Assembly: GCA_964411375.1 (NCBI GenBank)
Contig: CAYPKR010000001.1
Location: 358,629-422,628, forward strand
Direction of reading: 5' to 3'
Source of the DNA: an uncultured Candidatus Saccharibacteria bacterium
Lineage (GTDB): Bacteria; Patescibacteriota; Minisyncoccia; Phycocordibacterales; UBA12088
Length of the DNA: 64,000 nucleotides
This document shows, one piece after another, positions 4,084 to 22,617 of this stretch. Below the pieces are notes generated by a model. That model saw nothing but the letters and a program-made list of their open reading frames with translations. It searched no databases and was not told where the DNA came from. The position numbers and the translations under genes were made by a program. Within the stretch, counting starts at the first letter, position 1; every line of letters begins with the position of its first letter.

Positions 4084-5325
4084 CTAACTTCTCTTCACCT
4101 GGATATGTATCTCCGCGGTGGGAGAGGTGTTTATAGGGCTTTTGGCGTACTTGAAGGTGAGACAATGAGCGTCTCTGCCTTCTCGTGTCCATGGCCTAGC
4201 TTTCCACCAAGGAATCCAGTCGACCGTAGTCGATGTCCACCGCTTCACTCCGATTTCCCAAGCCGCGATGGCTGGATCGGAATCCCAAGTGACAGATAGC
4301 CCGGGATTAAAGCAGAACTCCCTTTGTCCTCCTTTCTTGAGTGGTCCGGTACGTAAGTCTGAATCGGGGGTCTGCAACGTGACCTCTTGTCCCCGGATAA
4401 CCGGCTTCGTGAGGCTCTCTCCGAGATTTCTCACCAGGTTGGCACCCGGAACTGTTGGCAGGTGGATGTATCCCGAAGGTCCAGGCTTTGTCCCTTCGAT
4501 GATGGTGATCCTGTTCACGTCATCTGCTGTCGCATGTTGCTTCAGGATTCTGACGTTCGCACTCTCACCTGAACCACCGATCACATCGCCGACTTCATAG
4601 TCACCGAAGTGAAGTTGGCCGTCATCTCCGAGCGCACAGGGGCTTAATCCTGTTTTCGGATCGACTGCACAAACAGTCCTCCAACCCCAGAACAATTGAG
4701 CTGCTGCCACAAGAAGAATAATGGCGAGCATACCGACTGCAAATCGCCTTGCTTTAGGAATCAAATCCGCAGCGATAAGGGCGATAACCGTGGCAACAAT
4801 TGCTGCGGGATTTTGCTGGTACCAGAAGAGTAAATTTCTTCCGAACAGGGAAAATATCGCCCCAGCGAATATCACTCCCAGGAGGCATGCAAGAAATGCA
4901 GTTCCTCGACGAGGTGTTACACCTTGTTCCGCAAATCCACCTCTGATGGCGGAGATAAGAAATAAGAGTGCTATCACTCCGCCTCCTATCCACATCCCGT
5001 ATTCTCTTGCGAAGTTCTGGGTAGTGGCGAGGGAGGGAATGTATGGGGTTATATGACCCCACCAATACCAGGAGGCGGCAGCAAGGATACTGAAGAGTCC
5101 AAACCAACCGATTGTACTGAATTTCCTCCTTGGCCGGTCTTGTGTCTCCGCGGGATGCGTGACAATAGTTTGGGTCGTTGTTCCCGCCCTTCTCCTTCTC
5201 GGAGGCGGGGGAGCTGGCGCTGCACCGGTTCCTACCGGTGCAGCGTCTGCGGTTGCAGCAGTCGTCGTTACTGCTCCTTCTTCCGGTCTCGACACTGTCG
5301 CCGAGTTCCTTGTTATCCTTGGCAT
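4084..5325 (-). CDS. membrane protein with a Pro/Ala-rich N-terminus, about 5 TM helices and a C-terminal soluble domain (possible NfeD-like partner of the SPFH protein)
   Basis: 413 aa lying in a high-GC island directly downstream of the SPFH gene (16-nt gap). The membrane-plus-C-terminal-beta-rich layout recalls NfeD/YuaF proteins, but I see no recognizable motif. Confidence 0.4.
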   Translation of the reverse strand: MPRITRNSATVSRPEEGAVTTTAATADAAPVGTGAAPAPPPPRRRRAGTTTQTIVTHPAETQDRPRRKFSTIGWFGLFSILAAASWYWWGHITPYIPSLATTQNFAREYGMWIGGGVIALLFLISAIRGGFAEQGVTPRRGTAFLACLLGVIFAGAIFSLFGRNLLFWYQQNPAAIVATVIALIAADLIPKARRFAVGMLAIILLVAAAQLFWGWRTVCAVDPKTGLSPCALGDDGQLHFGDYEVGDVIGGSGESANVRILKQHATADDVNRITIIEGTKPGPSGYIHLPTVPGANLVRNLGESLTKPVIRGQEVTLQTPDSDLRTGPLKKGGQREFCFNPGLSVTWDSDPAIAAWEIGVKRWTSTTVDWIPWWKARPWTREGRDAHCLTFKYAKSPINTSPTAEIHIQVKRS

Positions 5326-5340: not shown

Positions 5341-6654
5341 TTACGGTGAGTTGCCCTCCGCTGGTGGCGGTGGGGAGTGGTCGGTGTTTGCAGAACCAGA
5401 ATTAGCCGGTGTACCCCTAAAGATCGCACCTGCAAGTCCTGCCATTTCCTCGATACCCCTTGCTCCGAAGAAAAAGGTAGCCTTATCTCCGAGCGCTTTA
5501 GTGGTTTCGAGCCCTACGGCGATGCGAGATACATCGTCCAGAGAACCATCAGCTTGTGTTAAACCAGCCTTGATGCCCTCCAGTCGTGCAGTGCTCGCAG
5601 CACCGTCACCTTCGCCTTCCCTCGTTCGCTTAACCCTGTCTGCTTCAGCAGCCAGAACCGTAGCTCGTGCCGCCGCAACCGCCTGAGCGGGCCTCTGGAG
5701 CTGAGTATTCAGCTCATGTGACAGACCAATTGCTTTGATCGCTCCCTGAGTTATTTTTGTACCCCAGGTTTTAGAACGATCTTGCAGTCGAGCGAGGATT
5801 TGATCGCTGAACTCCCTCACCCTGACCATCACTTCCGCGAGCGTATGTGAAGGCAAGAGTTCAGTCAGTGTACGAGTGACCACGTCTTCGAGCAGCCGTT
5901 TTGCTGTGTCGAGATCACGAAGCTCTCGTACAAAGACTCGAGGATTCAGTATCTGAAAGGCAAATATAGCAGATACCTCCTGAGTCACACGCTGCGCAAG
6001 CGGGTCGGGATTGTTTGCATCCCCACCTTGCGCAAATGTGATTCGGAAGACCGGCCTTCTGCCTGGCGGGACGGGAACCCTGTCCTCGTTTCGTACCAGA
6101 AATTCTGGTTCATCCGGCACCTCCTTTTGGATTTCTCCGCTCGGAAAGGTTATTAACGAGCAGAGTCCATAGGGAAGAAATACCGGACCGCTCGTAACGT
6201 TCATGATTGGACGATTGAGCAGGAGTACGACCCCCACTTCATCCGGACCAACGGTGATAACCGAGAGCCCGTCTTCGTCTATCGTGAAGAAGCTGGCAAG
6301 TATATAAGCCAGCACCAAGAGACTCGTAAGAATGCTTGACCAGAGATGGTTATACCCCTGCATATACTGGGCGAGTCGGTGAGGAATAACGTAGAGGGTG
6401 AGATAGACAGCACCGCAAACGAGAACGATCGCGATAAGCGACCATACGACTCTGCGGATAGTCTCGCCGAATCCCGGCGCACCCTCATTTCCGTTTTGGA
6501 TGGGGGAAGGAGCTGGTGGAGTTCTTCGACGCGCACGCATTTTTAGTCCGTAGCGCACGATGACCCCCAAGAATGAGATAGTTACCAAGAAGAAGATTCC
6601 ACCAAAGACGAGATTGCCTGCTCCAAAGGAGTCGACAAGCTGATTGGTGTCCAT
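5341..6654 (-). CDS. SPFH/band-7 (stomatin/prohibitin/HflK-C-like) membrane protein
   Basis: 437 aa with an N-terminal TM region, a core segment (AQRVTQEVSAIFAFQILNPRVFVRELRDLDTAKRLLEDVVTRTL...) and an Ala-rich helix (QAVAAARATVLAAEADRVKRTREGE) typical of SPFH domains. GC is about 57-60%. Confidence 0.65.
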   Translation of the reverse strand: MDTNQLVDSFGAGNLVFGGIFFLVTISFLGVIVRYGLKMRARRRTPPAPSPIQNGNEGAPGFGETIRRVVWSLIAIVLVCGAVYLTLYVIPHRLAQYMQGYNHLWSSILTSLLVLAYILASFFTIDEDGLSVITVGPDEVGVVLLLNRPIMNVTSGPVFLPYGLCSLITFPSGEIQKEVPDEPEFLVRNEDRVPVPPGRRPVFRITFAQGGDANNPDPLAQRVTQEVSAIFAFQILNPRVFVRELRDLDTAKRLLEDVVTRTLTELLPSHTLAEVMVRVREFSDQILARLQDRSKTWGTKITQGAIKAIGLSHELNTQLQRPAQAVAAARATVLAAEADRVKRTREGEGDGAASTARLEGIKAGLTQADGSLDDVSRIAVGLETTKALGDKATFFFGARGIEEMAGLAGAIFRGTPANSGSANTDHSPPPPAEGNSP

Positions 6655-8032: not shown

Positions 8033-8105
8033 CCGCCCATAGCTCAGTTGGTAGAGCGACTCCCTCTTAAGGAGACGGTCCAAGGTTCGAGTCCTTGTGG
8101 GCGGA
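8033..8105 (+). tRNA. tRNA-Lys (anticodon CTT)
   Basis: Hand-folded cloverleaf: acceptor CCGCCCA/TGGGCGG, D-stem GCTC/GAGC, anticodon loop CTCTTAA, T-arm CAAGG-TTCGAGT-CCTTG, discriminator A. No CCA is encoded. Confidence 0.8.
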
Positions 8106-8150
8106 CAAGCGTTAAGAAATCCTGATCTACGTCAGGATTTTAGCTTGTCC
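8103..8150. terminator. nested perfect hairpin overlapping the tRNA-Lys 3' end
   Basis: Outer stem GGACAAGC/GCTTGTCC and inner stem AAATCCTGA-TCTACG-TCAGGATTT. The left arm begins inside the tRNA acceptor 3' strand. Confidence 0.55.
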
Positions 8151-8260
8151 GAGCCGGAGCAATGTTGCGTAGCAACTGCGAGGCGGGATCGCGAGTGCTT
8201 AGCATTTTGTGCGTAGCTACAAAATACTTAGCAACTCGTGATGACTTTTTAAAAGACGGC

Positions 8261-8384
8261 AATCGGTCACCGATAATTTTGCGTAGCAAAATTTCGTCGA
8301 CCCCAGCTCGCCGTCGCTTCGCGACATGGCTGCGCTTTTCGATTCCCAACACACTCAAAGCAGCTTGAGTGCTCTCTCGGCACT
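8261..8384 (+). ncRNA. structured non-coding element, copy A (44-nt conserved module, GCGTAGC-loop hairpin, GTCGC hairpin, inverted pseudo-copy of the tRNA-Leu 3' half)
   Basis: 8261-8304 is identical to 9116-9159. Hairpin AATTTT-GCGTAGC-AAAATT; hairpin GTCGC-TTC-GCGAC. TTTTCGATTCCCAAC is a T-loop copy, CACTCAA-AGCAGC-TTGAGTG is an inserted hairpin, and CTCTCGGCAC is a plus-orientation copy of the tRNA-Leu 3' acceptor. Confidence 0.5.
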
Positions 8385-8409
8385 CTTTACTCAACTTCGT
8401 TTCGTTCGG

Positions 8410-8496
8410 TGCCGAGAGTGGGAATCGAACCCACACGAGCGTTTATAGCCCTCGGGATTTTAAGTCCCGTATGTCTACCAATTCCATCATCTCGGC
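8410..8496 (-). tRNA. tRNA-Leu (anticodon TAA), long variable arm
   Basis: The reverse complement folds with acceptor GCCGAGA/TCTCGGC, anticodon stem CGGGA/TCCCG with loop CTTAAAA, a long variable arm, T-arm GTGGG-TTCGATT-CCCAC and discriminator A. Confidence 0.8.
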
Positions 8497-8503
8497 GTAC
8501 TCG

Positions 8504-9097
8504 CTATTGTAAATTAGTACCCCAATATTGTCTCGATGCAAGTATTGCAATAAATCCGCACCCTATGAATGAATAGATAGGATAGGCTAAGTTATAGGCT
8601 GCGTACGAGGAAACTGCAAGAATCCCGCAGAGTGCGGAAAGGGTGATGAGTGCCCAAGGTAGCAACGCCTCCGACTCGGGCATTCGGTATGTTTTAGTGA
8701 TCGTTGGGATGGTAAAAAATGCATCGCCGATGATTGAAATATAAATTGCAAGTACTGGGTCGTTGGTATACACCCATGCGGCTATTGCCATGATTCCTAT
8801 TAGGAACGCAAGTGTATCAATCCAGTGGTACGCCGTAAGATATTTTTTGTAATAAACCGAGACGCCGAGTGTTAGTAGGCAATTAAAGGTGAATATGGTT
8901 GGAATGACTATCGACCAATCTGCGCCTTTTGAAAACTGCGCAAGAGCCGGAATTGCAGAAAGGAGTGACCAACCTATTTGTGAATAAATATGTGGACGAG
9001 TAGTGCCGTATATAACGCTCCGCAAATAGGGAACCGCCGAAGAAAGCGCAATGCACGTTGCAGCTATTCCGAGTAGTGCGTGGGAATTGATAGGCAT
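8504..9097 (-). CDS. polytopic membrane protein (hypothetical, about 6 TM)
   Basis: 197 aa and hydrophobic throughout. It sits between tRNA-Leu and the second copy of the 44-nt module. Confidence 0.5.
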   Translation of the reverse strand: MPINSHALLGIAATCIALSSAVPYLRSVIYGTTRPHIYSQIGWSLLSAIPALAQFSKGADWSIVIPTIFTFNCLLTLGVSVYYKKYLTAYHWIDTLAFLIGIMAIAAWVYTNDPVLAIYISIIGDAFFTIPTITKTYRMPESEALLPWALITLSALCGILAVSSYAAYNLAYPIYSFIGCGFIAILASRQYWGTNLQ

Positions 9098-9115
9098 TGG
9101 TTTCTTAATTTTAGG

Positions 9116-9320
9116 AATCGGTCACCGATAATTTTGCGTAGCAAAATTTCGTCGACCCCGCCTTACTCATCCATAAGCCAGTCCACGCAGGATCGGTCCT
9201 TACAGGACCAGTATACCGTGCGGATTTTTTCTTCGCCTTCGGCTCGAAAAAAGTCTCGCACGGTTTTCGATTCCCGCACGAACGCTCCCCCGGAGCGTTC
9301 TCGGGCCCCAACTTCGTTGG
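9116..9320 (+). ncRNA. structured non-coding element, copy B (44-nt module + variable hairpins + T-loop copy of tRNA-Cys + CCC-triloop hairpin)
   Basis: 9116-9159 is identical to 8261-8304. There is a GGTCC-TTACA-GGACC hairpin; TTTTCGATTCCCGC is a plus-orientation copy of the tRNA-Cys T-loop/T-stem; and there is a GAACGCTCC-CCC-GGAGCGTTC hairpin. Confidence 0.5.
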
Positions 9321-9392
9321 AGTCCACGGCGGGAATCGAACCCGCGTATAAGGGTTTTGCAGACCCATGCCTTACCACTTGGCCACGTGGAC
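9321..9392 (-). tRNA. tRNA-Cys (anticodon GCA)
   Basis: The reverse complement folds with acceptor GTCCACG/CGTGGAC, anticodon stem TGGGT/ACCCT (a 27-43 U-U pair) with loop CTGCAAA, T-arm GCGGG-TTCGATT-CCCGC and discriminator T. Confidence 0.75.
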
Positions 9393-9397
9393 AATTT

Positions 9398-9715
9398 TTA
9401 TTGCAGTGCCTCGGCGCTGGTATCCGTCATCGGAATATCCGGCGCAATGACAAAATCGATGAAGGGAAGTCCGCGGAGCGCGCTCTTCTCCTTTAAATAT
9501 TCACGAAATTCACTTCGCTTCCGCTTCAAAAAATCAAGCGCTGCAGCTTCGTGATCTTTTGGATACACCGAGCAAAAAATCTTTGCCTGCTTTAAATCTT
9601 CCGAAAGATACACGCCGGTTACGGTTATGAGCGACTGACGATTGGATTCTATATTCACAAATGTCGCAGCAAGATGCTGAAGCTCTTCCCTCGTGCGTGC
9701 AGTACTGTCCTCCAT
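9398..9715 (-). CDS. rbfA: ribosome-binding factor A
   Basis: 105 aa carrying the RbfA core ITVTGVYLSEDLKQAKIFCSVY. It lies immediately downstream of infB, the conserved infB-rbfA order. Confidence 0.75.
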   Translation of the reverse strand: MEDSTARTREELQHLAATFVNIESNRQSLITVTGVYLSEDLKQAKIFCSVYPKDHEAAALDFLKRKRSEFREYLKEKSALRGLPFIDFVIAPDIPMTDTSAEALQ

Positions 9716-14564: not shown

Positions 14565-17270
14565 TTGTCTAAATCTACTCACATGACTCCATTCAATAAT
14601 TTCACAACCAAGGCGAAGGAAGCGGTACGAAAAGCCCACGAACTTGCTATTGAACGCGGACAAAATCACGTCAATCCGCTCCATCTTCTAACCGCACTCA
14701 TCCTGCAGGAAGAAAATACTGTCTTTTCTATACTCGAGCGACTCGACGTCGATACGGTACTTTTGACTGACACACTCCTTGAAGCACTTGAAGCGCCGGA
14801 AGGATCATCAGTGCTCTCACCTTCATATCAGCTCTACCTCACGCCAGAACTTGCACACGTACTTGAAAATTCTGCACGCATTGCGTCAGCACTTGGCGAT
14901 CAGTTTGTTTCTACCGAACATCTTTTCATCGCTATTCTTGATAATCCGGGCCCAGCGCGCGAAGTAATCGCTCGTTTCCGATTTGATCGGAATTCTGTCA
15001 TCAGAATTATTCAGGAACTCAAGGCAAACAATGTTACTGATGTCGCACAACCAAAGAAATTTAAAGCCCTCGCAAAATTTACGCGTAATCTAACGGCGCT
15101 TGCCGCTGACAACAAACTCGATCCAGTCATCGGTCGTGATGGTGAAATCACCCGCGTCATTCAGATCCTTTCTCGTCGAACCAAAAATAATCCGATTTTG
15201 ATCGGTGAGGCGGGTGTTGGAAAAACCGCAATCGCCGAAGGTCTCGCAAATCGTATCGCATCAGGTGACGCACCAGAATCGCTTCGCGGAAAGGAACTTG
15301 TTGCGCTCGACTTAGGGCTTCTCATTGCGGGTACGAAATATCGCGGCGAATTTGAAGAGCGTCTCAAAAACATTATGAAAGAAGTTGAGAAGGCGGATGG
15401 GAAAGTCATCCTCTTTATCGACGAGCTTCATACGATCGTTGGTGCGGGTGCAGCAGATGGCGCGATGGATGCGTCAAACATGCTGAAGCCAGCGCTTGCG
15501 CGCGGAGAACTTCGGGTTATCGGTGCAACGACGCTTGCTGAATATCAAAAGCACATCGAAAAAGATGCAGCGCTCACGCGTCGCTTCCAGCCGGTCATTG
15601 TAAATGAACCGTCGATCGAAGATGCGGTCGCGATTCTTCGTGGACTTCGTGAAAAGTACGAAGTCTTCCATGGCGTTCGAATTACCGATGAAGCAATCGT
15701 TGCGGCAGTTAATCTTTCTTCCCGCTATATCACTGATCGATTCTTGCCGGACAAGGCGATCGATTTGATTGACGAATCTGCGTCAGCACTCCGTATCTCG
15801 CTTGAAAATAAACCGGCGGCTCTCGAAGATGCACACCGCAAAATAATGCGCCTCGAAGTCGAGAAGGAAGCGCTTTCAAAAGACTTGGAAATTCACGAAG
15901 GTCGTGATACCAAGGCGCGCATCAAACAAATTGAAAAAGAAATCGCCGATCTTCGCGAGAAGACTGCCGACCTCGAACTTCGATGGAGCAACGAAAAGGA
16001 AGTGCTCTCTGATATCAAGGCGCTCAAAAAACAACTTGAAACGCTTCGAAATGAAGCAGAAAACGCGGAAGCAGTTGCTGATCTTTCTCGTGCTGCCGAA
16101 GTACGCTATGGAAAAATTCCGGCACTTGAGCGCGATCTCGATCAGAAGGTCAAAAAATTAAAGCGATTCCAGCAGACGCGCCGTGTGCTGAAAGAAGAGA
16201 TTATGGAAGAGGATATTGCAGCAGTTGTTGCGCGCTGGACGGGTGTTCCGGTTTCTCGAATGCTCGAAGAAGAAGCACAGAAGCTTTCTCGTATGGAAGA
16301 TTCGCTGAAAGATCGAATCGTGGGACAAGATGATGCAATTACGAAGGTTGCCGCTGCGGTGAAGCGATCTCGTGCAGGCATTGCTGATCCAAATCGTCCA
16401 ATCGGTTCGTTCCTCTTCCTCGGTCCAACGGGAGTTGGTAAAACGGAACTCTCAAAGGCGCTCGCTGAATTCATGTTTGATGACGAGAAATCGCTCATTC
16501 GAGTCGACATGTCCGAATACATGGAACGCCACGCAGTGTCCAAGCTCATCGGTGCGCCTCCAGGATATGTTGGATTTGAAGAAGGCGGATCTTTGACCGA
16601 ACTCGTTCGTCATCGTCCGTACTCGGTTTTGCTCTTCGACGAAATTGAAAAAGCGCATCCCGAAGTCTTCAACATTCTGCTTCAAGTTCTCGACAGCGGT
16701 CATTTGACCGATTCAAAGGGACGCAAAGTGAACTTCAAAAATACAATCATCATTTTGACTTCGAACATTGGTTCGCAATACATCGATCGCATGACGCAGA
16801 TCGGATTCTCGAAAGATAATGGTAACGAGGCGGTGCAGTACGAAATGACAAAGGACAAGGTGATGGATTCGCTCAAAGAATTCTTCCGCCCTGAATTCCT
16901 CAATCGTCTTGATGAAATCATCATCTTCAATATGCTCTCCGAGGACGCGATTAAGAATATTGTCGCGATGCAGGTGAAGTTGGTCGCTGATCGCTTGCTC
17001 CAAAAGGGAATCACGCTCACGCTCACTGATGCCGTCTATGCGCATCTCGCAAAAACTGGATACGATCCGCACTACGGTGCCCGTCCACTGAAGCGCTTGA
17101 TTCAAAACAAGATTTTGACCCCGGTCGCCTCGATGATGATCTCCGAAGGACTGCTTGGGGGTGGCTCGGTTGTCGTCGACATGAAGGGGACGGAATTCGC
17201 ATTCGATGTGAAGAAAAAGAAGGGAACCGTTCGTCGGGCTTCAAAGAAAGAGGAGAAGGTGTTGGTATAG
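14565..17270 (+). CDS. clpB: ATP-dependent chaperone ClpB
   Basis: 901 aa with Clp-N repeats, D1 Walker [16 protein letters not shown], a long coiled-coil M-domain, D2 Walker [16 protein letters not shown], Walker [11 protein letters not shown] and sensor GARPLKR. Confidence 0.85.
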
Positions 17271-17280
17271 TAATTTAATC

Positions 17281-17326
17281 GAGCGGAGAATCCGGTGCGA
17301 AGCGGTTCGCACCGGATTCTCCGCTC
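17281..17326. terminator. 21-bp perfect palindrome (clpB terminator)
   Basis: GAGCGGAGAATCCGGTGCGAA-GCG-GTTCGCACCGGATTCTCCGCTC. Confidence 0.6.
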
Positions 17327-17343
17327 GATTGTTGTATGAAAAC

Positions 17344-17371
17344 AAAAAATCCCTGTGAGGGGATTTTTTGG
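17344..17371. repeat. AAAAAATCCC-N6-GGGATTTTTT palindrome (family member 1)
   Basis: Perfect 10-bp stem. Same-family hairpins lie at 18243-18272 and 22570-22617. Confidence 0.6.
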
Positions 17372-17382
17372 TAAAGTTCGAA

Positions 17383-18066
17383 TTAATTTTTGGAAGATTC
17401 GGGTTTATTCGTTTTCTTCTTTTGATCAGCCATTGCCCTTACATTCTCCAGACGTTGCTGTCGTTCATAACGTGTCACATACCAATCCTCAACTAAATTC
17501 TCTATGAGACCTATAAGTAATTGCGCCTCGTTTGGATCAATTTCGATAATTACATTTACGTCCTTTTCCATGTGTGCACCGATATTCCCTACGGAACGTA
17601 CAGCGTCAATAGCGTCCCAAGTATCAATATTCACCTGATCTTTTATGGCTTCAATCTCATTTTTTAACATTCCTGATTCTACTTTCCAGAAATCTCGAAT
17701 CATTCCTTGCAGAGCACGCCTAGCAAGGGTAGCCGAAGCTTTCGGACTTAGATCTCTAATTCTGCAGGCTTCGTAGTAATCCTCTTTGATAGCAACTGGT
17801 ATGTATTCTGGCAATACTTTGGCCGAAGACTCTGGAAGCAGTTGCCAGGTTTGAGTAGTAGGCCCCTCTTCCCCCTGCACTAATCTTGTGAGTCTCGTTT
17901 TTAAATAAAGCTCGTGGCACATAGGATTGGGACATCGTACAGCAAAAAAACCAACGCCCACAGCACCCTTTTTCGTAGCATTGATATAGACACTTCTCCA
18001 GTGATTAAAGCTGTCATTTCCCACAATGGTGGAGTGGTGACCACAGTATGGACATGTGTAATTCAT
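17383..18066 (-). CDS. Zn-ribbon + DUF4145 domain protein (defence-island-associated family)
   Basis: N-terminal CPYCGHH...CPNPMC ribbon and C-terminal ...AVRSVGNIGAHMEKDVNVIIEIDPNEAQLLIGLIENLVEDWYV, matching the R-x2-GN-x-GAH core of DUF4145. The start is taken at ATG 18066 (GAGGG RBS), because the upstream GTG-extended frame to 18207 overlaps the tRNA-Tyr-associated hairpin region. Confidence 0.5.
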   Translation of the reverse strand: MNYTCPYCGHHSTIVGNDSFNHWRSVYINATKKGAVGVGFFAVRCPNPMCHELYLKTRLTRLVQGEEGPTTQTWQLLPESSAKVLPEYIPVAIKEDYYEACRIRDLSPKASATLARRALQGMIRDFWKVESGMLKNEIEAIKDQVNIDTWDAIDAVRSVGNIGAHMEKDVNVIIEIDPNEAQLLIGLIENLVEDWYVTRYERQQRLENVRAMADQKKKTNKPESSKN

Positions 18067-18191
18067 AATACCCTCAATATATTCCTCTCTTCTTTGTATG
18101 TCCAAAATATTTTGAGAGGGAGTTTCGACCCCTACAGGGTCAGTCCAGGTTGTATGATCTTTTCTTCCTTCGGTCGAAAAGCTCGACAACC

Positions 18192-18242
18192 TTTTCGAAT
18201 CCCTCACGAAAGTTCCCCCGGAGCTTTCTCTGTGCCACCAAA
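18192..18242 (+). ncRNA. inverted pseudo-copy of the tRNA-Tyr 3' half with a CCC-triloop hairpin insert
   Basis: TTCGAATCCCTC is a plus-orientation copy of the tRNA-Tyr T-loop/T-stem, followed by the GAAAGTTCC-CCC-GGAGCTTTC hairpin and GTGCCACCA, which resembles the acceptor 3'-CCA. Confidence 0.45.
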
Positions 18243-18272
18243 CAAAAAATCCCTTTCAAGGGATTTTTTGTT
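18243..18272. repeat. CAAACAAAAAATCCC-TTTCAA-GGGATTTTTTGTTTG perfect palindrome abutting the tRNA-Tyr 3' CCA
   Basis: 15-bp perfect stem ending 1 nt before the tRNA-Tyr 3' end. Confidence 0.6.
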
Positions 18273-18358
18273 TGGTGCGCCGGGAGGGATTCGAACCCCC
18301 GTAGGCATAAGCCGCTTGGTTTACAGCCAAGTGCGATTGACCACTCCGCCACCGACGC
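18273..18358 (-). tRNA. tRNA-Tyr (anticodon GTA), long variable arm, CCA encoded
   Basis: The reverse complement folds with acceptor GCGTCGG/CCGGCGC (a G-U pair), anticodon stem CTTGG/CCAAG with loop CTGTAAA, a long variable arm, T-arm GGGGG-TTCGAAT-CCCTC and ACCA. Confidence 0.75.
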
Positions 18359-18408
18359 GTTCCCACAAATTATCACGCTCCCTAGAATCTGGGAAGGAGT
18401 GGTGAATA

Positions 18409-18924
18409 TTACTTACAAATCGACGTTGAAGAGGCTATATGTCCCACGGTCGAACTTGAGGTTCCTACAATGCAGATGATACCTCTGCCAAATGCCCCGC
18501 TGCCCACTTCGAGAAATGCAAGAACAGAATAATCATCTGTCTTCGGAGAACTGCCTCCGCCGCTTGAAGAAATGCCATATTGGCACACGCCTGTTGAAGA
18601 TAGAGTACAAACTGTTGTTCCGTTCGGATCCTTAAATTTGGAGAGTTGGGTCATATCAATTCCATTTATTGTTCCCGTGCACGAATTTATATTCGAGCTT
18701 GCCGCGGTACAGCCTTGAAGCGCTGGACCCGTAGCTCCGGTTGCGAGATTGAGTACGCGCCCAATCTGTTCAAGATCAGAAATACGTTGGGCATCACGCG
18801 CCTTGGTCCTGGCGCTATTCAAGGATGCAAGAACAACTGATGAGAGAATGCCGATGATTGCGATGACCACGAGAAGTTCGATAAGCGTGAATCCATAACT
18901 CCTCCTTATTTGGGGGCTGCTCAT
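18409..18924 (-). CDS. type IV pilin / pseudopilin (class III signal peptide)
   Basis: N-terminus MSSPQIRRSYG|FTLIELLVVIAIIGIL with the prepilin-peptidase site G-F and a Glu at +5. The remainder is Ser/Thr/Gly-rich with 6 Cys. Confidence 0.7.
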   Translation of the reverse strand: MSSPQIRRSYGFTLIELLVVIAIIGILSSVVLASLNSARTKARDAQRISDLEQIGRVLNLATGATGPALQGCTAASSNINSCTGTINGIDMTQLSKFKDPNGTTVCTLSSTGVCQYGISSSGGGSSPKTDDYSVLAFLEVGSGAFGRGIICIVGTSSSTVGHIASSTSICK

Positions 18925-19075
18925 ACTGATGTAGTTCAAATTAATTACAACAAATTTATCATAGCATCCTTCAAGGAAGCGGCGCAGGGTTCCGAGGCCG
19001 AGGTGGGGAAATCTTTCCCCGCGTTCTGTGTATAAAAACAGCCATATCGTCGCATTTTATCGTTATACTAATTTC

Positions 19076-20053
19076 ATGAAGTATCTTGCATGGCTCCTTG
19101 CCTTGCTCTCGTTTTCGATTATCCCGACGGCCGTGTTTGCCGCTGGTGGACTTGTACCGTGCGATGGACCGGAGTGTGATATCTGTTCGTTTGTTGCGCT
19201 CGGACAAAAAATCCTCAATTTCCTCGTCTATGCTTCGGTCCTTATTGCGACCATCATGTTCACGTATGCAGGGATTGAAATGCTCATTCATTCCGACAAT
19301 TCCGGAGCGATCTCGCAAGCGCGACATACGTTTATGAATGTACTGATTGGACTCGTCGCAATTCTCGCCGCGTGGCTCATCATCGATACAGTTATGCGCG
19401 TTCTCTTTACCTACAACAATGGTTTTGAAGGAACGGCAGGATACGGAAAGCCTTGGGAGGATATTTTGTGCGCGTATCAATCGGAACCGCCTCCACCCAC
19501 TACCGGAGGCGGTGGAACGACTGCTACCGCAGGAGGGGGTAGCGCGACCGCGGGAGGTGGAGGTGGATCATGCACAGTACAAACGGATGGTGCGTGTAGT
19601 GTGAGTGCGCTGACACCAGTCTTCGATACCGTAGCAAGCCAAGCATCGCAAATCTGCAATGCAGAAAGCGGCGGAAATCCGAACAGTGAAAGTGCTGTGG
19701 ATCGCATTCTCGCTGGCGGACAGGCATTTTCAGTCGGGCTATTTCAAATAAACATGACGCAACATGATCTCACTGCTCCGGCATGCAAGGCGCTAAACGG
19801 CGGTAATCCAATGGATTGCTCCCAATTAGATACTTCTGTAATAGGTCCACCGCTCACTCCACCTGCATTTACCGGCTCAAATCGAAATGCCCGCATTACT
19901 AATACTGCTTTGTACAATGCATGTAGTGCAGCGCTCAAAAATCCTGCGTGCGCAATACAGACTGCCAAACAAATTTACATTGCTGGCGGAGGTCCTTCGC
20001 GCCCAAATTCATGGGCACAGTGGTCGACTGCTGCAACCTGTCATCTTCCGTAA
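19076..20053 (+). CDS. fusion protein: N-terminal VirB2/TrbC-like two-TM pilin domain, Gly/Thr linker, C-terminal lytic-transglycosylase/lysozyme-like domain
   Basis: The start is taken at MKYLAWLL. It has a signal peptide, then PCDGPECDICS, two TM helices (the same layout as array gene 1276) and a GGGTTATAGGG linker. The C-terminal CNAESGGNPNSES...GLFQIN matches the E-S...GL(F/M)QI signature of SLT/Rpf-type transglycosylases. Confidence 0.5.
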   Translation: MKYLAWLLALLSFSIIPTAVFAAGGLVPCDGPECDICSFVALGQKILNFLVYASVLIATIMFTYAGIEMLIHSDNSGAISQARHTFMNVLIGLVAILAAWLIIDTVMRVLFTYNNGFEGTAGYGKPWEDILCAYQSEPPPPTTGGGGTTATAGGGSATAGGGGGSCTVQTDGACSVSALTPVFDTVASQASQICNAESGGNPNSESAVDRILAGGQAFSVGLFQINMTQHDLTAPACKALNGGNPMDCSQLDTSVIGPPLTPPAFTGSNRNARITNTALYNACSAALKNPACAIQTAKQIYIAGGGPSRPNSWAQWSTAATCHLP

Positions 20054-20678: not shown

Positions 20679-21617
20679 ATGAAATCAGTAATCCGATTTT
20701 TTACAGTGACGGTAGTTGCATTTATGCCGTTTGTCGTTTTGTATGCCGCGGGTGGACTCGTACCGTGCGACGGACCAGAGTGTGATCTATGTTCACTTGT
20801 CGCGCTCGCTCAGAAAATAATGAATTTCCTGATTTTCATTGCGGTCATTATTGCGACCATCATGTTTGTCTACGCGGGATTCACGATGCTCGTGAATGCA
20901 GACAATGCAGGAAAGCGAAGTGAGGGGCGGAAAATTTTTGTGAATGTACTGATTGGACTCGTCGCAATTCTCGCCGCGTGGCTCATCATCGATACGGTCA
21001 TGAAAGTTCTCTTCGTCAATTCTGAACTCAACAACGATCGGGTCGGGCGCCCGTGGCAGGATATTTTGTGCGAGTTTCAATCCGTAAAGCCGCCACCCGA
21101 TGGGGGTGGAACTGCAACTGCAGGAACAGCTACCGCAGGCACCGCGACTGCTGGCGGTACCGCAACAGCAGGAGGCGGAACCGCAGGTGGTAGTGGTAGC
21201 GGAGCTCCATTGCATCAGGATGCGGCGTTCGCTCTTCTTAATGCAAGTAACATCGCAATACATAGCTCAGGTGATTGTACCGATCCGAATATTTCCACCT
21301 GTACATCTCTTGAAGGAATGCGGCAGGGAACTGTTGCCGGCATCATCAATCTATCGAATAGCGTCTGTGGCTCGGATGGGGGTTGTGTCGTAGTGACCGG
21401 AGGTACGGAAGTAGGGCATGAACCAGGAGTCTGTTCTCATTCAAATGGATGCAAGGCAGACGTTGCATTTAATCCTGCGGTCGATGCATATATCACGACC
21501 TTTGTTCGAATAGGCGACCGGACTGACGGTGCGGCGCAGTATCAGGATAGGTGTGGAAATATCTATGCCCGAGAGTCAGACCATTGGGACATCTCTTTCC
21601 CGAACGCATGCTCCTAA
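20679..21617 (+). CDS. fusion protein: N-terminal pilin-like two-TM domain (paralog of 19076) + (GTATA)n linker + Cys-rich C-terminal domain of unknown function
   Basis: The N-terminal 130 aa is about 75% identical to 19076, including a 55-nt identical DNA tract (20941-20995 = 19335-19389). The C-terminal domain is unrelated and has 12 Cys. Confidence 0.5.
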   Translation: MKSVIRFFTVTVVAFMPFVVLYAAGGLVPCDGPECDLCSLVALAQKIMNFLIFIAVIIATIMFVYAGFTMLVNADNAGKRSEGRKIFVNVLIGLVAILAAWLIIDTVMKVLFVNSELNNDRVGRPWQDILCEFQSVKPPPDGGGTATAGTATAGTATAGGTATAGGGTAGGSGSGAPLHQDAAFALLNASNIAIHSSGDCTDPNISTCTSLEGMRQGTVAGIINLSNSVCGSDGGCVVVTGGTEVGHEPGVCSHSNGCKADVAFNPAVDAYITTFVRIGDRTDGAAQYQDRCGNIYARESDHWDISFPNACS

Positions 21618-22432: not shown

Positions 22433-22560
22433 TCGGTCACGGATAATTGTTGCTACGCACAATTTCCGCGACCCGTGAAAAGGTGTCCGTACACCTTTTC
22501 ACCACCGTCGCTATGCGACATGGCTCCGTCTTTCGATTCTGAAGGAGGTCTGCGCAGGCA
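22433..22560 (+). ncRNA. structured non-coding element, copy C (diverged homolog of copies A/B, with T-loop copy of tRNA-Trp)
   Basis: CGGTCACGGATAATTGTTGCTACGCACAATTTCCGCGACCCG aligns to the 44-nt module; the loop GCGTAGC becomes GCTACGC while the stem is kept. It has an inserted 12-bp hairpin, a GTCGC-TAT-GCGAC hairpin conserved with copy A, TTTCGATTCTGAA (a tRNA-Trp T-loop copy) and a GTCTGCG-CAGG-CAGAC hairpin. Confidence 0.5.
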
Positions 22561-22569
22561 GACTTCTGT

Positions 22570-22617
22570 GGCCCGCAAATGTAAAATCCCTCAAAAGGGA
22601 TTTTACATTTGCGGGCC
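22570..22617. repeat. 21-bp perfect palindrome GGCCCGCAAATGTAAAATCCC-TCAAAA-GGGATTTTACATTTGCGGGCC overlapping the tRNA-Trp 3' end
   Basis: The right arm includes the tRNA-Trp acceptor 3' strand (GGGCCC). Confidence 0.6.

Follow-up and report, generated by a model that had tools for sequence, protein, structure and literature searches.

RAZR, the ring-activated zinc-finger RNase, is the name now given to the protein PD-T7-4 (Zhang et al., Nature 2026, PMC13017515), which comes from the work of Vassallo et al. (2022), where its E. coli homologs were found often to overlap an integrase gene (PMC9519451). In RAZR, an N-terminal Cys4 zinc finger, the sensor of phage proteins, is joined by a conserved linker to a DUF4145 domain at the C terminus, a divergent HEPN RNase whose catalytic residues are R146 and H154. 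RAZR forms a 24-mer on phage rings, either of Gp77 or of portal protein, and cleaves single-stranded RNA non-specifically, resulting in abortive infection, and the E. coli protein works as a single gene. The zinc finger is variable and sets phage specificity, while the linker and HEPN domain are conserved; the characterized proteins are those of E. coli UMB1727 and Klebsiella variicola, and a structure has been deposited as PDB 9y9c (PMC13017515). Earlier work had assigned DUF4145 to the HEPN superfamily and noted its fusion to zinc ribbons and its association with restriction-modification (R-M) operons (Anantharaman et al. 2013, PMC3710099). Here we describe a gene found between clpB and a tRNA-Tyr gene in a 64,000-nucleotide stretch of contig CAYPKR010000001.1 (the window, by which we mean that whole stretch), and we consider it probable, though well short of certain, that this gene encodes a RAZR-like abortive-infection RNase.

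The gene lies on the reverse strand, and its mechanical open reading frame (ORF) reaches back to a GTG at position 18207, which would give a protein of 274 amino acids. Because all 52 homologs in our set begin with MNYTCPYCG, and because the GTG extension overlaps a structured non-coding element, we take the ATG at 18066, from which the protein begins MNYTCPYCGHH, to be the true start. The initial annotation had assigned to the resulting 227-residue protein a zinc ribbon and a C-terminal DUF4145 domain, and both assignments hold. The two zinc knuckles are formed by C5 and C8 (CPYC) and by C45 and C50 (CPNPMC), and all four cysteine ligands are invariant in the 52 homologs, as is the pair R157 and H165, spaced as Rx7H. 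The Pfam profile for DUF4145 (PF13643) matches residues 99-182 with an E value of 1.7e-10 and 41.3 bits, above its own cut-off of 23.1 bits. The sole match in PADLOC is PD-T7-4 (E=1.8e-12), with residues 2-199 aligned to positions 13-184 of the 211-position profile, or 81% of the model. Among the PHROGs, phrog_1305 matches over nearly the full length of the protein (E=5.6e-32), and a search of NCBIfam with the window protein gave no match. The AlphaFold2 model, with a mean pLDDT (predicted local distance difference test score) of 84.4, shows an all-beta zinc-ribbon region and a helical C-terminal domain. Mean pairwise identity among the 52 homologs is 50% in the zinc ribbon, 77% in the linker, and 78% in the HEPN domain, and the most variable stretch of the zinc ribbon is a beta-hairpin at residues 53-73. 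By analogy with RAZR, the zinc ribbon is presumed to be the sensor domain.

Comparison with RAZR itself extends this homology over the whole protein. The match to PDB 9y9c has an E value of 2.2e-5 for the single sequence and 2.3e-8 when the profile of 52 homologs is used. The segment RSVGNIGAH of the window protein aligns on RIVGNQAVH of 9y9c, so that R157 and H165 correspond to the catalytic R146 and H154, and E193, D194 and R199 fall at the RAZR inter-dimer contacts D179, D180 and R184, with a one-residue gap in the alignment; in RAZR these contacts, together with V21, permit dimers to build higher-order oligomers. For a profile-to-profile comparison, we gathered proteins with the HEPN part of 9y9c and aligned 15 of them as a RAZR-family profile. 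When this profile is compared with that of the 52 homologs using hhalign, the result is a probability of 98.7% and an E value of 2.7e-16 over 171 columns, and the alignment takes in the linker and HEPN domain as well as both knuckles (YTCPYCG on FHCIYCG, and CPNPMC on CEHC). Judged by architecture and homology, the window protein is best filed as a putative zinc-ribbon HEPN RNase of the RAZR/PD-T7-4 type that belongs to a separate subfamily. The gene and its surroundings are laid out as follows, in window coordinates.

14565..17270, + strand: clpB (901 aa, from the ORF list), the conserved left flank of the insertion site
17277..17330: perfect palindrome with 25-nt arms (17277-17301 and 17306-17330) and a 4-nt spacer, terminator-like on the + strand
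17340..17370: A-tract/T-tract hairpin, AAACAAAAAATCCC-TGTGAG-GGGATTTTTTG, terminator-like on the - strand
17383..18066, - strand: RAZR/PD-T7-4-like gene, 227 aa, 684 bp including the stop codon
17452..17847, - strand: linker (residues 74-98) and DUF4145/HEPN domain (residues 99-205)
17572-17574, - strand: H165, catalytic as assigned by homology
17596-17598, - strand: R157, catalytic as assigned by homology
17848..18066, - strand: N-terminal zinc-ribbon domain, residues 1-73, with C5, C8, C45 and C50
18076..18104, - strand: promoter-like site TGGACA-17 nt-TATATT, a consensus match only, ending 10 nt before the ATG
18112..18242: structured tRNA-3'-flank element of 131 nt, a three-way junction plus a 9-bp hairpin
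18236..18277: perfect palindrome with 20-nt arms (18236-18255 and 18258-18277) that includes the CACCA 3' end of tRNA-Tyr
18273..18358, - strand: tRNA-Tyr (GTA), intact (ARAGORN; Rfam tRNA, 59.7 bits), the conserved right flank

We compared this interval with the same junction in related genomes. A ClpB query was used to fetch 80 loci from species-representative genomes and 80 from metagenomes, and all 160 relatives are metagenome-assembled genomes of the Parcubacteria/Paceibacteria type whose ClpB proteins are 65-74% identical to that of the window. Synteny was counted only at loci with at least 400 nt of sequence downstream of clpB. Of these, 71 are genome loci and 69 metagenome loci, and the feature next to clpB is tRNA-Tyr in 63 and 60 of them, respectively (123/140 together). 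At 40 of those 63 genome loci the gap between clpB and tRNA-Tyr is no longer than 320 nt. Median gaps, taken from where the protein match ends, are approximately 200 and 230 nt; in the window, 1,002 nt separate the clpB stop codon from tRNA-Tyr. A tblastn search with the window protein found no homolog within 4-6 kb of clpB in any of the 160 relatives. Where the relatives have long gaps (570-3,700 nt), these are filled by unrelated genes, namely a PD-(D/E)XK endonuclease, an APH-type kinase, an NT5C nucleotidase, a pilin, a 1,141-aa surface protein and several ORFs that belong to no family. Given this unrelated cargo, the junction is a variable spot and the gene a lineage-specific acquisition.

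The gene is also solitary. A tblastn search of the 64-kb window with the R-M genes found beside its homologs elsewhere (loci L001, L002, L004, L246, L247 and L248), and with the methylase, SMODS, S24 repressor and recombinase genes from such loci, found none of them, and searches of ten neighboring genes against Pfam and PADLOC returned housekeeping and pilin genes only, among them initiation factor IF-2, a type IV pilin, T4SS-pilin-like (type IV secretion system) proteins and MiaA. The G+C content of the gene is 42.3%, compared with a window mean of 47.3% (z=-1.9; the lowest 2.5% of windows of the same size), and its third-position G+C content is 37.7%, compared with 47.9% in clpB. The gene is thus a solitary, lineage-specific insertion at the conserved clpB/tRNA-Tyr junction. 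This agrees with the initial annotation, which had described a gene of lower G+C content than its flanks, a single-gene accessory insertion in the clpB-tRNA-Tyr interval, and a one-gene defense insertion at a tRNA locus: none of the 160 relatives has the gene while 123 of 140 keep the junction, and the homology to RAZR/PD-T7-4 is accompanied by no other defense, R-M or recombinase gene nearby. Both checks suggested in the initial annotation, a DUF4145 profile search and a comparison of the interval across related genomes, thus turned out in its favor.

Several further observations concern this junction and its neighborhood. At locus L027 (8947-12040), a 640-aa helicase, matched in PADLOC to methyl-directed restriction enzymes of Type IV (E=1.5e-42), and an ORF of 326 aa constitute another defense-like cargo, inserted 3' of tRNA-Tyr and before a flank element that bears a copy of the tRNA-Tyr T-arm. 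A recurrent ORF of 208-212 aa, with the motifs YWGEG and VDFANSDP, adjoins tRNA-Tyr at L017 (8790-9425), L032 (9488-10117), L069 (4231-4857) and L031 (9947-10585); it may be homing-endonuclease-like, and its L017 copy, the sole copy scanned, has no Pfam or PADLOC match. The orientation of tRNA-Tyr varies among the loci (L005-L165): about 73% of relatives have it on the same strand as clpB, and about 27% (33/123) have it, like the window, on the other strand, which implies repeated small inversions. Past tRNA-Tyr, the window holds a type IV pilin with an N_methyl motif (18409-18939, - strand) and two paralogous T4SS-pilin/TrbC-like proteins with Gly/Thr/Ala-rich linkers (19028-20053 and 20679-21617, both + strand); the T4SS-pilin-like gene is syntenic in several relatives.

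The gene is framed by hairpins. On the clpB side, the initial annotation had reported a 21-bp palindrome followed by a hairpin, and both are present, with the correction that the palindrome has 25-nt arms. These arms are 100% complementary and begin 6 nt past the clpB stop codon, and GC-rich hairpins occur downstream of clpB in relatives too. The hairpin at 17340-17370, whose arms CAAAAAATCCC and GGGATTTTTTG occupy 17343-17370, begins 12 nt past the stop codon of the RAZR-like gene. On the tRNA side, a palindrome is likewise present, with 20-nt arms, and the hairpin that had been listed separately from it is part of the same structure. The two A-tract/T-tract hairpins (17340-17370 and 18240-18270) form a 31-nt direct repeat, identical at 28 of 31 positions and exactly 900 nt apart from start to start, that brackets the flank element and the RAZR-like gene; the right copy sits within the 20-nt-arm palindrome. 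This motif has only two matches in the 64 kb, where none is expected by chance, and excision of the 900 nt between the copies would leave a gap of approximately 100 nt, which is the usual size in relatives. The same type of A-tract hairpin lies directly against the end of tRNA-Tyr in the gene-less relatives L052, L035 and L021, in which tRNA-Tyr is on the - strand and the gap is short. Since this hairpin type also follows other tRNAs in relatives, the 31-nt repeat is possibly a generic terminator. The repeat could be a duplication made at insertion or, equally, two copies of a clade-typical terminator hairpin. The framing hairpins are ordinary terminator-type hairpins of the clade, and part of the frame is a separate tRNA-flank element. 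A related hairpin, at 22583-22604, adjoins tRNA-Trp.

We rejected two kinds of mobile unit for this interval. An integrative island does not fit, since there is no integrase or recombinase homolog in the window and the flanking 31-nt repeat is a hairpin beside the tRNA rather than a tRNA end; nor does an integron cassette, since the flanking hairpins are perfect palindromes without attC features and no integrase lies nearby.

To place the protein among its relatives, we ran a word-indexed search, which returned 7,247 clusters at E<=1e-3. The best clusters are 55-66% identical to the window protein and 220-260 aa long and, where they are named, are DUF4145 proteins of Parcubacteria or Taylorbacteria. 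Genomic contexts were read for seven close homologs on long contigs. In two Type I R-M systems (loci L002 and L247), such a homolog (P0048 and P0086, 58-59% identical) is situated between hsdS and hsdR, beside serine recombinases; another comes after a Type IIG enzyme; a fourth stands before a methylase and a ResIII helicase, wedged in after rpsJ; two are near methylases and S24 repressors, one of these with a SMODS gene nearby; and one (L249) is solitary. The initial annotation had associated DUF4145 with R-M and anti-phage contexts, an association well illustrated by the close homologs inside Type I operons and beside other R-M genes. The Type I system of L002 also holds, between hsdM and hsdS (4321-4815; likewise in L003), an ORF of 164 aa with an RVT_3 domain.

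These contexts raise the possibility that the window gene is an orphaned accessory module of an R-M system. In this subfamily the protein would normally act together with R-M enzymes, for instance as a fail-safe RNase for when restriction is blocked, and in the window its partners would have been lost or never present; the copy would then be non-functional or would depend on an R-M system elsewhere in the genome. The placement of P0048 and P0086 between hsdS and hsdR, and of other homologs near a Type IIG enzyme, methylases and a ResIII helicase, is what this explanation would predict, and Anantharaman et al. (2013, PMC3710099) give the entry "in operon with R-M" for DUF4145. However, no homolog of those R-M genes is present in the 64-kb window (out of a genome of roughly 514 kb), the close homolog at L249 is solitary as well, and E. 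coli RAZR is sufficient as a single gene (PMC13017515). The catalytic residues and zinc ligands are moreover all intact, which speaks against decay. We regard an orphaned R-M module as an unlikely explanation, albeit one to be taken seriously, and continue to favor a RAZR-like RNase.

Homologs of the protein also occur in phages. Eight temperate Streptococcus phages carry copies that are 40-45% identical over 81-97% of the protein; the copy in phage SM1 is gp7, in the lysogeny/early region, and relatives are found in the Javan, IPP16 and PH15 prophages. In IMG/VR, 309 relatives are on viral contigs. The distribution of homologs is that of a mobile defense gene. In a different reading, the gene is the toxin of a toxin-antitoxin or addiction module, or the remnant of a prophage or integrative element, kept by selfish stabilization. 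Transfer RNA genes are classic integration targets, and the gene's site adjoins one. HEPN domains are common as toxins of toxin-antitoxin systems (PMC3710099), and the presence of homologs in the lysogeny region of temperate phages and on those 309 viral contigs is in keeping with such an origin. Against it, there is no second small ORF that could encode an antitoxin between clpB and tRNA-Tyr, save overlaps of the gene itself; no integrase, recombinase or phage gene lies nearby; and the 3' end of the tRNA is not directly repeated, the 31-nt repeat being a terminator-type hairpin common in the clade. Selfish maintenance is in our view a very unlikely account of this gene.

The structured element at 18112-18242, between the RAZR-like gene and tRNA-Tyr, is 79% identical to window positions 9180-9314, which abut tRNA-Cys. 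Three copies share a fold made up of a three-way junction (a closing stem, the hairpin GAYCC-TTACA-GGRTC and a long A/U-rich hairpin) and a separate 9-bp hairpin, and in these copies 14-15 base pairs show compensatory changes, whichever strand is read. In a 28-sequence alignment, which was itself fitted to the model, 91% of cells are paired, compared with 64% after shuffling and 52% or less when slid controls are scored, and 36 of 39 pairs change on both sides. A covariance-model search recovers 16 copies (E<1e-3) from the window and genome loci, to which the metagenome loci add 12; together they span loci L009-L143 plus the window. Twenty-two of the 28 copies lie no more than 60 nt beyond the 3' end of a tRNA (Tyr, Cys, Trp, Lys and three Leu isoacceptors), nearly always in the same orientation. 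Fourteen of these 22 contain an inverted, exact copy, 11-13 nt long, of the T-loop and 3' T-stem of the adjacent tRNA, for example TTCGAATCCCTC at 18194-18205 (+ strand) by tRNA-Tyr and TTCGATTCCCGC at 9265-9276 by tRNA-Cys; the longest match of the T-arm copy to tRNAs of other anticodons is about 6 nt. The closing stem therefore resembles the T-arm of the element's own tRNA with approximately 75 nt inserted in the loop. The counts of G.U and A.C (32 vs 26) are uninformative as to the strand of the element. The element also adjoins tRNA-Tyr in gene-less relatives and is therefore part of the tRNA flank, separate from the inserted gene.

Rfam searches of the whole window at gathering thresholds, and of 17150-18500 and 8050-9450 at permissive ones, returned only tRNAs and hairpin noise, and an exact-pattern scan of viral contigs for the conserved hairpin of the element found no match. 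Two identifications were considered for the element and set aside. A hammerhead-like reading of the three-way junction fails on inspection by eye, since a covarying stem consumes the would-be core, and the Rfam ribozyme models do not match; and an intron-containing or degenerate tRNA on the opposite strand does not fit either, as acceptor, D and anticodon arms are all missing and a group I intron would need a much longer insertion (compare bioRxiv 10.1101/2025.07.03.662931). Our tentative proposal is that the element represents an undescribed class found 3' of Paceibacteria tRNAs, each carrying a copy of the T-arm of its own tRNA, which, if functional, may shape the landing or expression of accessory genes there, the RAZR-like gene included. 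It might serve in processing, act as a trailer transcribed along with the tRNA and pairing with its T-arm, or be a miniature mobile element that makes use of T-arm-like palindromes. To our knowledge, no tRNA-flank element that copies the T-arm in this way has been described.

The proximity of the element invites one more reading of the gene, as a regulator that binds nucleic acids, or as a housekeeping factor that processes RNA and is linked to tRNA-Tyr and the flank element. The gene directly follows tRNA-Tyr and the structured element on the same strand, and both phrog_1305 and SM1 gp7 are annotated as "DNA binding protein", although this label is an annotation only. All 160 relatives lack the gene, yet they keep tRNA-Tyr, and many keep the flank element; since both are kept without it, the gene is not needed for either. 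The invariant Rx7H pair and the HEPN fold, furthermore, indicate an RNase. A regulatory or housekeeping role is thus highly improbable, and a RAZR-like RNase remains our preferred interpretation.

Other modules and genes accompany the tRNAs of this clade. A 44-nt perfect repeat (8261-8304 = 9116-9159) and a further module (8311-8345, similar to 22505-22539) are located in other tRNA flanks: the one separating tRNA-Lys from tRNA-Leu, the one beyond the tRNA-Cys element and the one close to tRNA-Trp. Matching sequences occur in the tRNA flanks of L041, L067, L068, L072 and L081, and these modules form a second family of tRNA-flank modules. At L081 (~8775-8900) and L010 (~6030-6200), the stretch from clpB to the real tRNA-Tyr contains a direct copy of the last ~21 nt of tRNA-Tyr, which together with an inverted partner (GGAGGATTCG...CGAATCCTCC) encloses a structured insert, and the whole looks like a T-arm and acceptor 3' strand with an expanded loop. 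Within the window, a multi-pass membrane protein of 197 aa that matches nothing in Pfam or PADLOC is encoded between the tRNA-Cys flank element and tRNA-Leu(taa) (8504-9097, - strand), a layout of tRNA, element and single gene that mirrors that of the RAZR-like gene.

The 684-bp gene has been inserted, in the window lineage only, into the short conserved clpB/tRNA-Tyr junction of a genome of the Paceibacteria (Parcubacteria, within the Candidate Phyla Radiation, or CPR). By analogy with E. coli RAZR, we propose that its product would act as follows. Before infection, the protein would be held as an inactive oligomer. Upon infection, its zinc ribbons would bind a multimeric, ring-forming protein made by the phage, for example the portal, and the binding of this ring would bend the oligomer such that neighboring HEPN domains form active sites. 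The active enzyme would then cut single-stranded RNA without sequence preference, so that translation stops and the infection is aborted. The RNase activity, its trigger, the oligomeric switch and the abortive outcome are each predicted by homology with the E. coli protein.

A number of points weigh against this interpretation. Five of the seven close homologs are in or next to R-M modules, and the subfamily may therefore normally need a partner that is missing here. The biochemistry of RAZR covers the E. coli and Klebsiella proteins, which are outside the window subfamily and outside the CPR. Foldseek found no significant match in the PDB, where its best hit (E=0.16) is a HEPN protein. The comparison draws on distant relatives, with at most 74% ClpB identity. 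The promoter-like site agrees with the consensus at 10 of 12 positions, and such sites occur in this region at the frequency expected by chance. The full-length relatives phrog_1305 and SM1 gp7 belong to temperate phages of Firmicutes, and their description as DNA-binding is annotation only. Identity to RAZR is only about 27% in the profile alignment, and the proteins differ in particulars: the second knuckle is CX4C in the window protein and CX2C in RAZR; the variable beta-hairpin at residues 53-73 is extra; the motif following the catalytic histidine is HMEKD as opposed to HPGEI; and the C-terminal LP..AR.AIEKRD motif of RAZR is absent, its place being taken by a long helix and a lysine-rich tail.

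If the interpretation is correct, the window gene is a new and distant member of a known and recently characterized defense family. RAZR was characterized only in 2026, and only in enterobacteria, and the window locus carries the same architecture and ligands in an ultra-small CPR genome with very few known immune genes. The CPR subfamily of RAZR-like proteins is large, with thousands of clusters at 90% identity. The locus is a clean case of a one-gene immune insertion, as the empty state is well defined in the relatives. That the nearest relatives are frequently placed between hsdS and hsdR suggests that RAZR-type RNases and R-M systems are functionally connected, a question not taken up in the E. 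coli work. The tRNA-flank element is the more unusual object of the interval and may matter more than the gene.

Among the known systems, the HEPN RNases that act in abortive infection and immunity, such as Csm6, LsoA/RnlA, AbiV and the HEPN-MNT toxins, differ from the window protein in being regulated by CARF domains or antitoxins, in having no zinc-ribbon sensor, and in the spacing of their motif, which is Rx4-6H as compared with Rx7H. The DUF4145 proteins embedded in R-M systems (PMC3710099) share its Pfam family, and its nearest relatives in that position (loci L002 and L247) have its length and architecture and are 58-59% identical to it; they sit in operons, whereas the window copy has no R-M gene in the 64-kb window. 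The phage family phrog_1305, with SM1 gp7, matches over the full length and, as in the window, occurs as a single small gene among unrelated genes. The window gene has no neighboring integrase, unlike many E. coli RAZR homologs (PMC9519451), and its host is a CPR bacterium. With RAZR the window protein has in common a single gene encoding approximately 220 aa, in which a zinc ribbon is followed by a linker and a DUF4145 HEPN domain. An acidic pair and an arginine (E193, D194 and R199) align with the inter-dimer positions of RAZR and may be their counterparts. As in RAZR, the zinc ribbon is the most variable part of the protein among the homologs.

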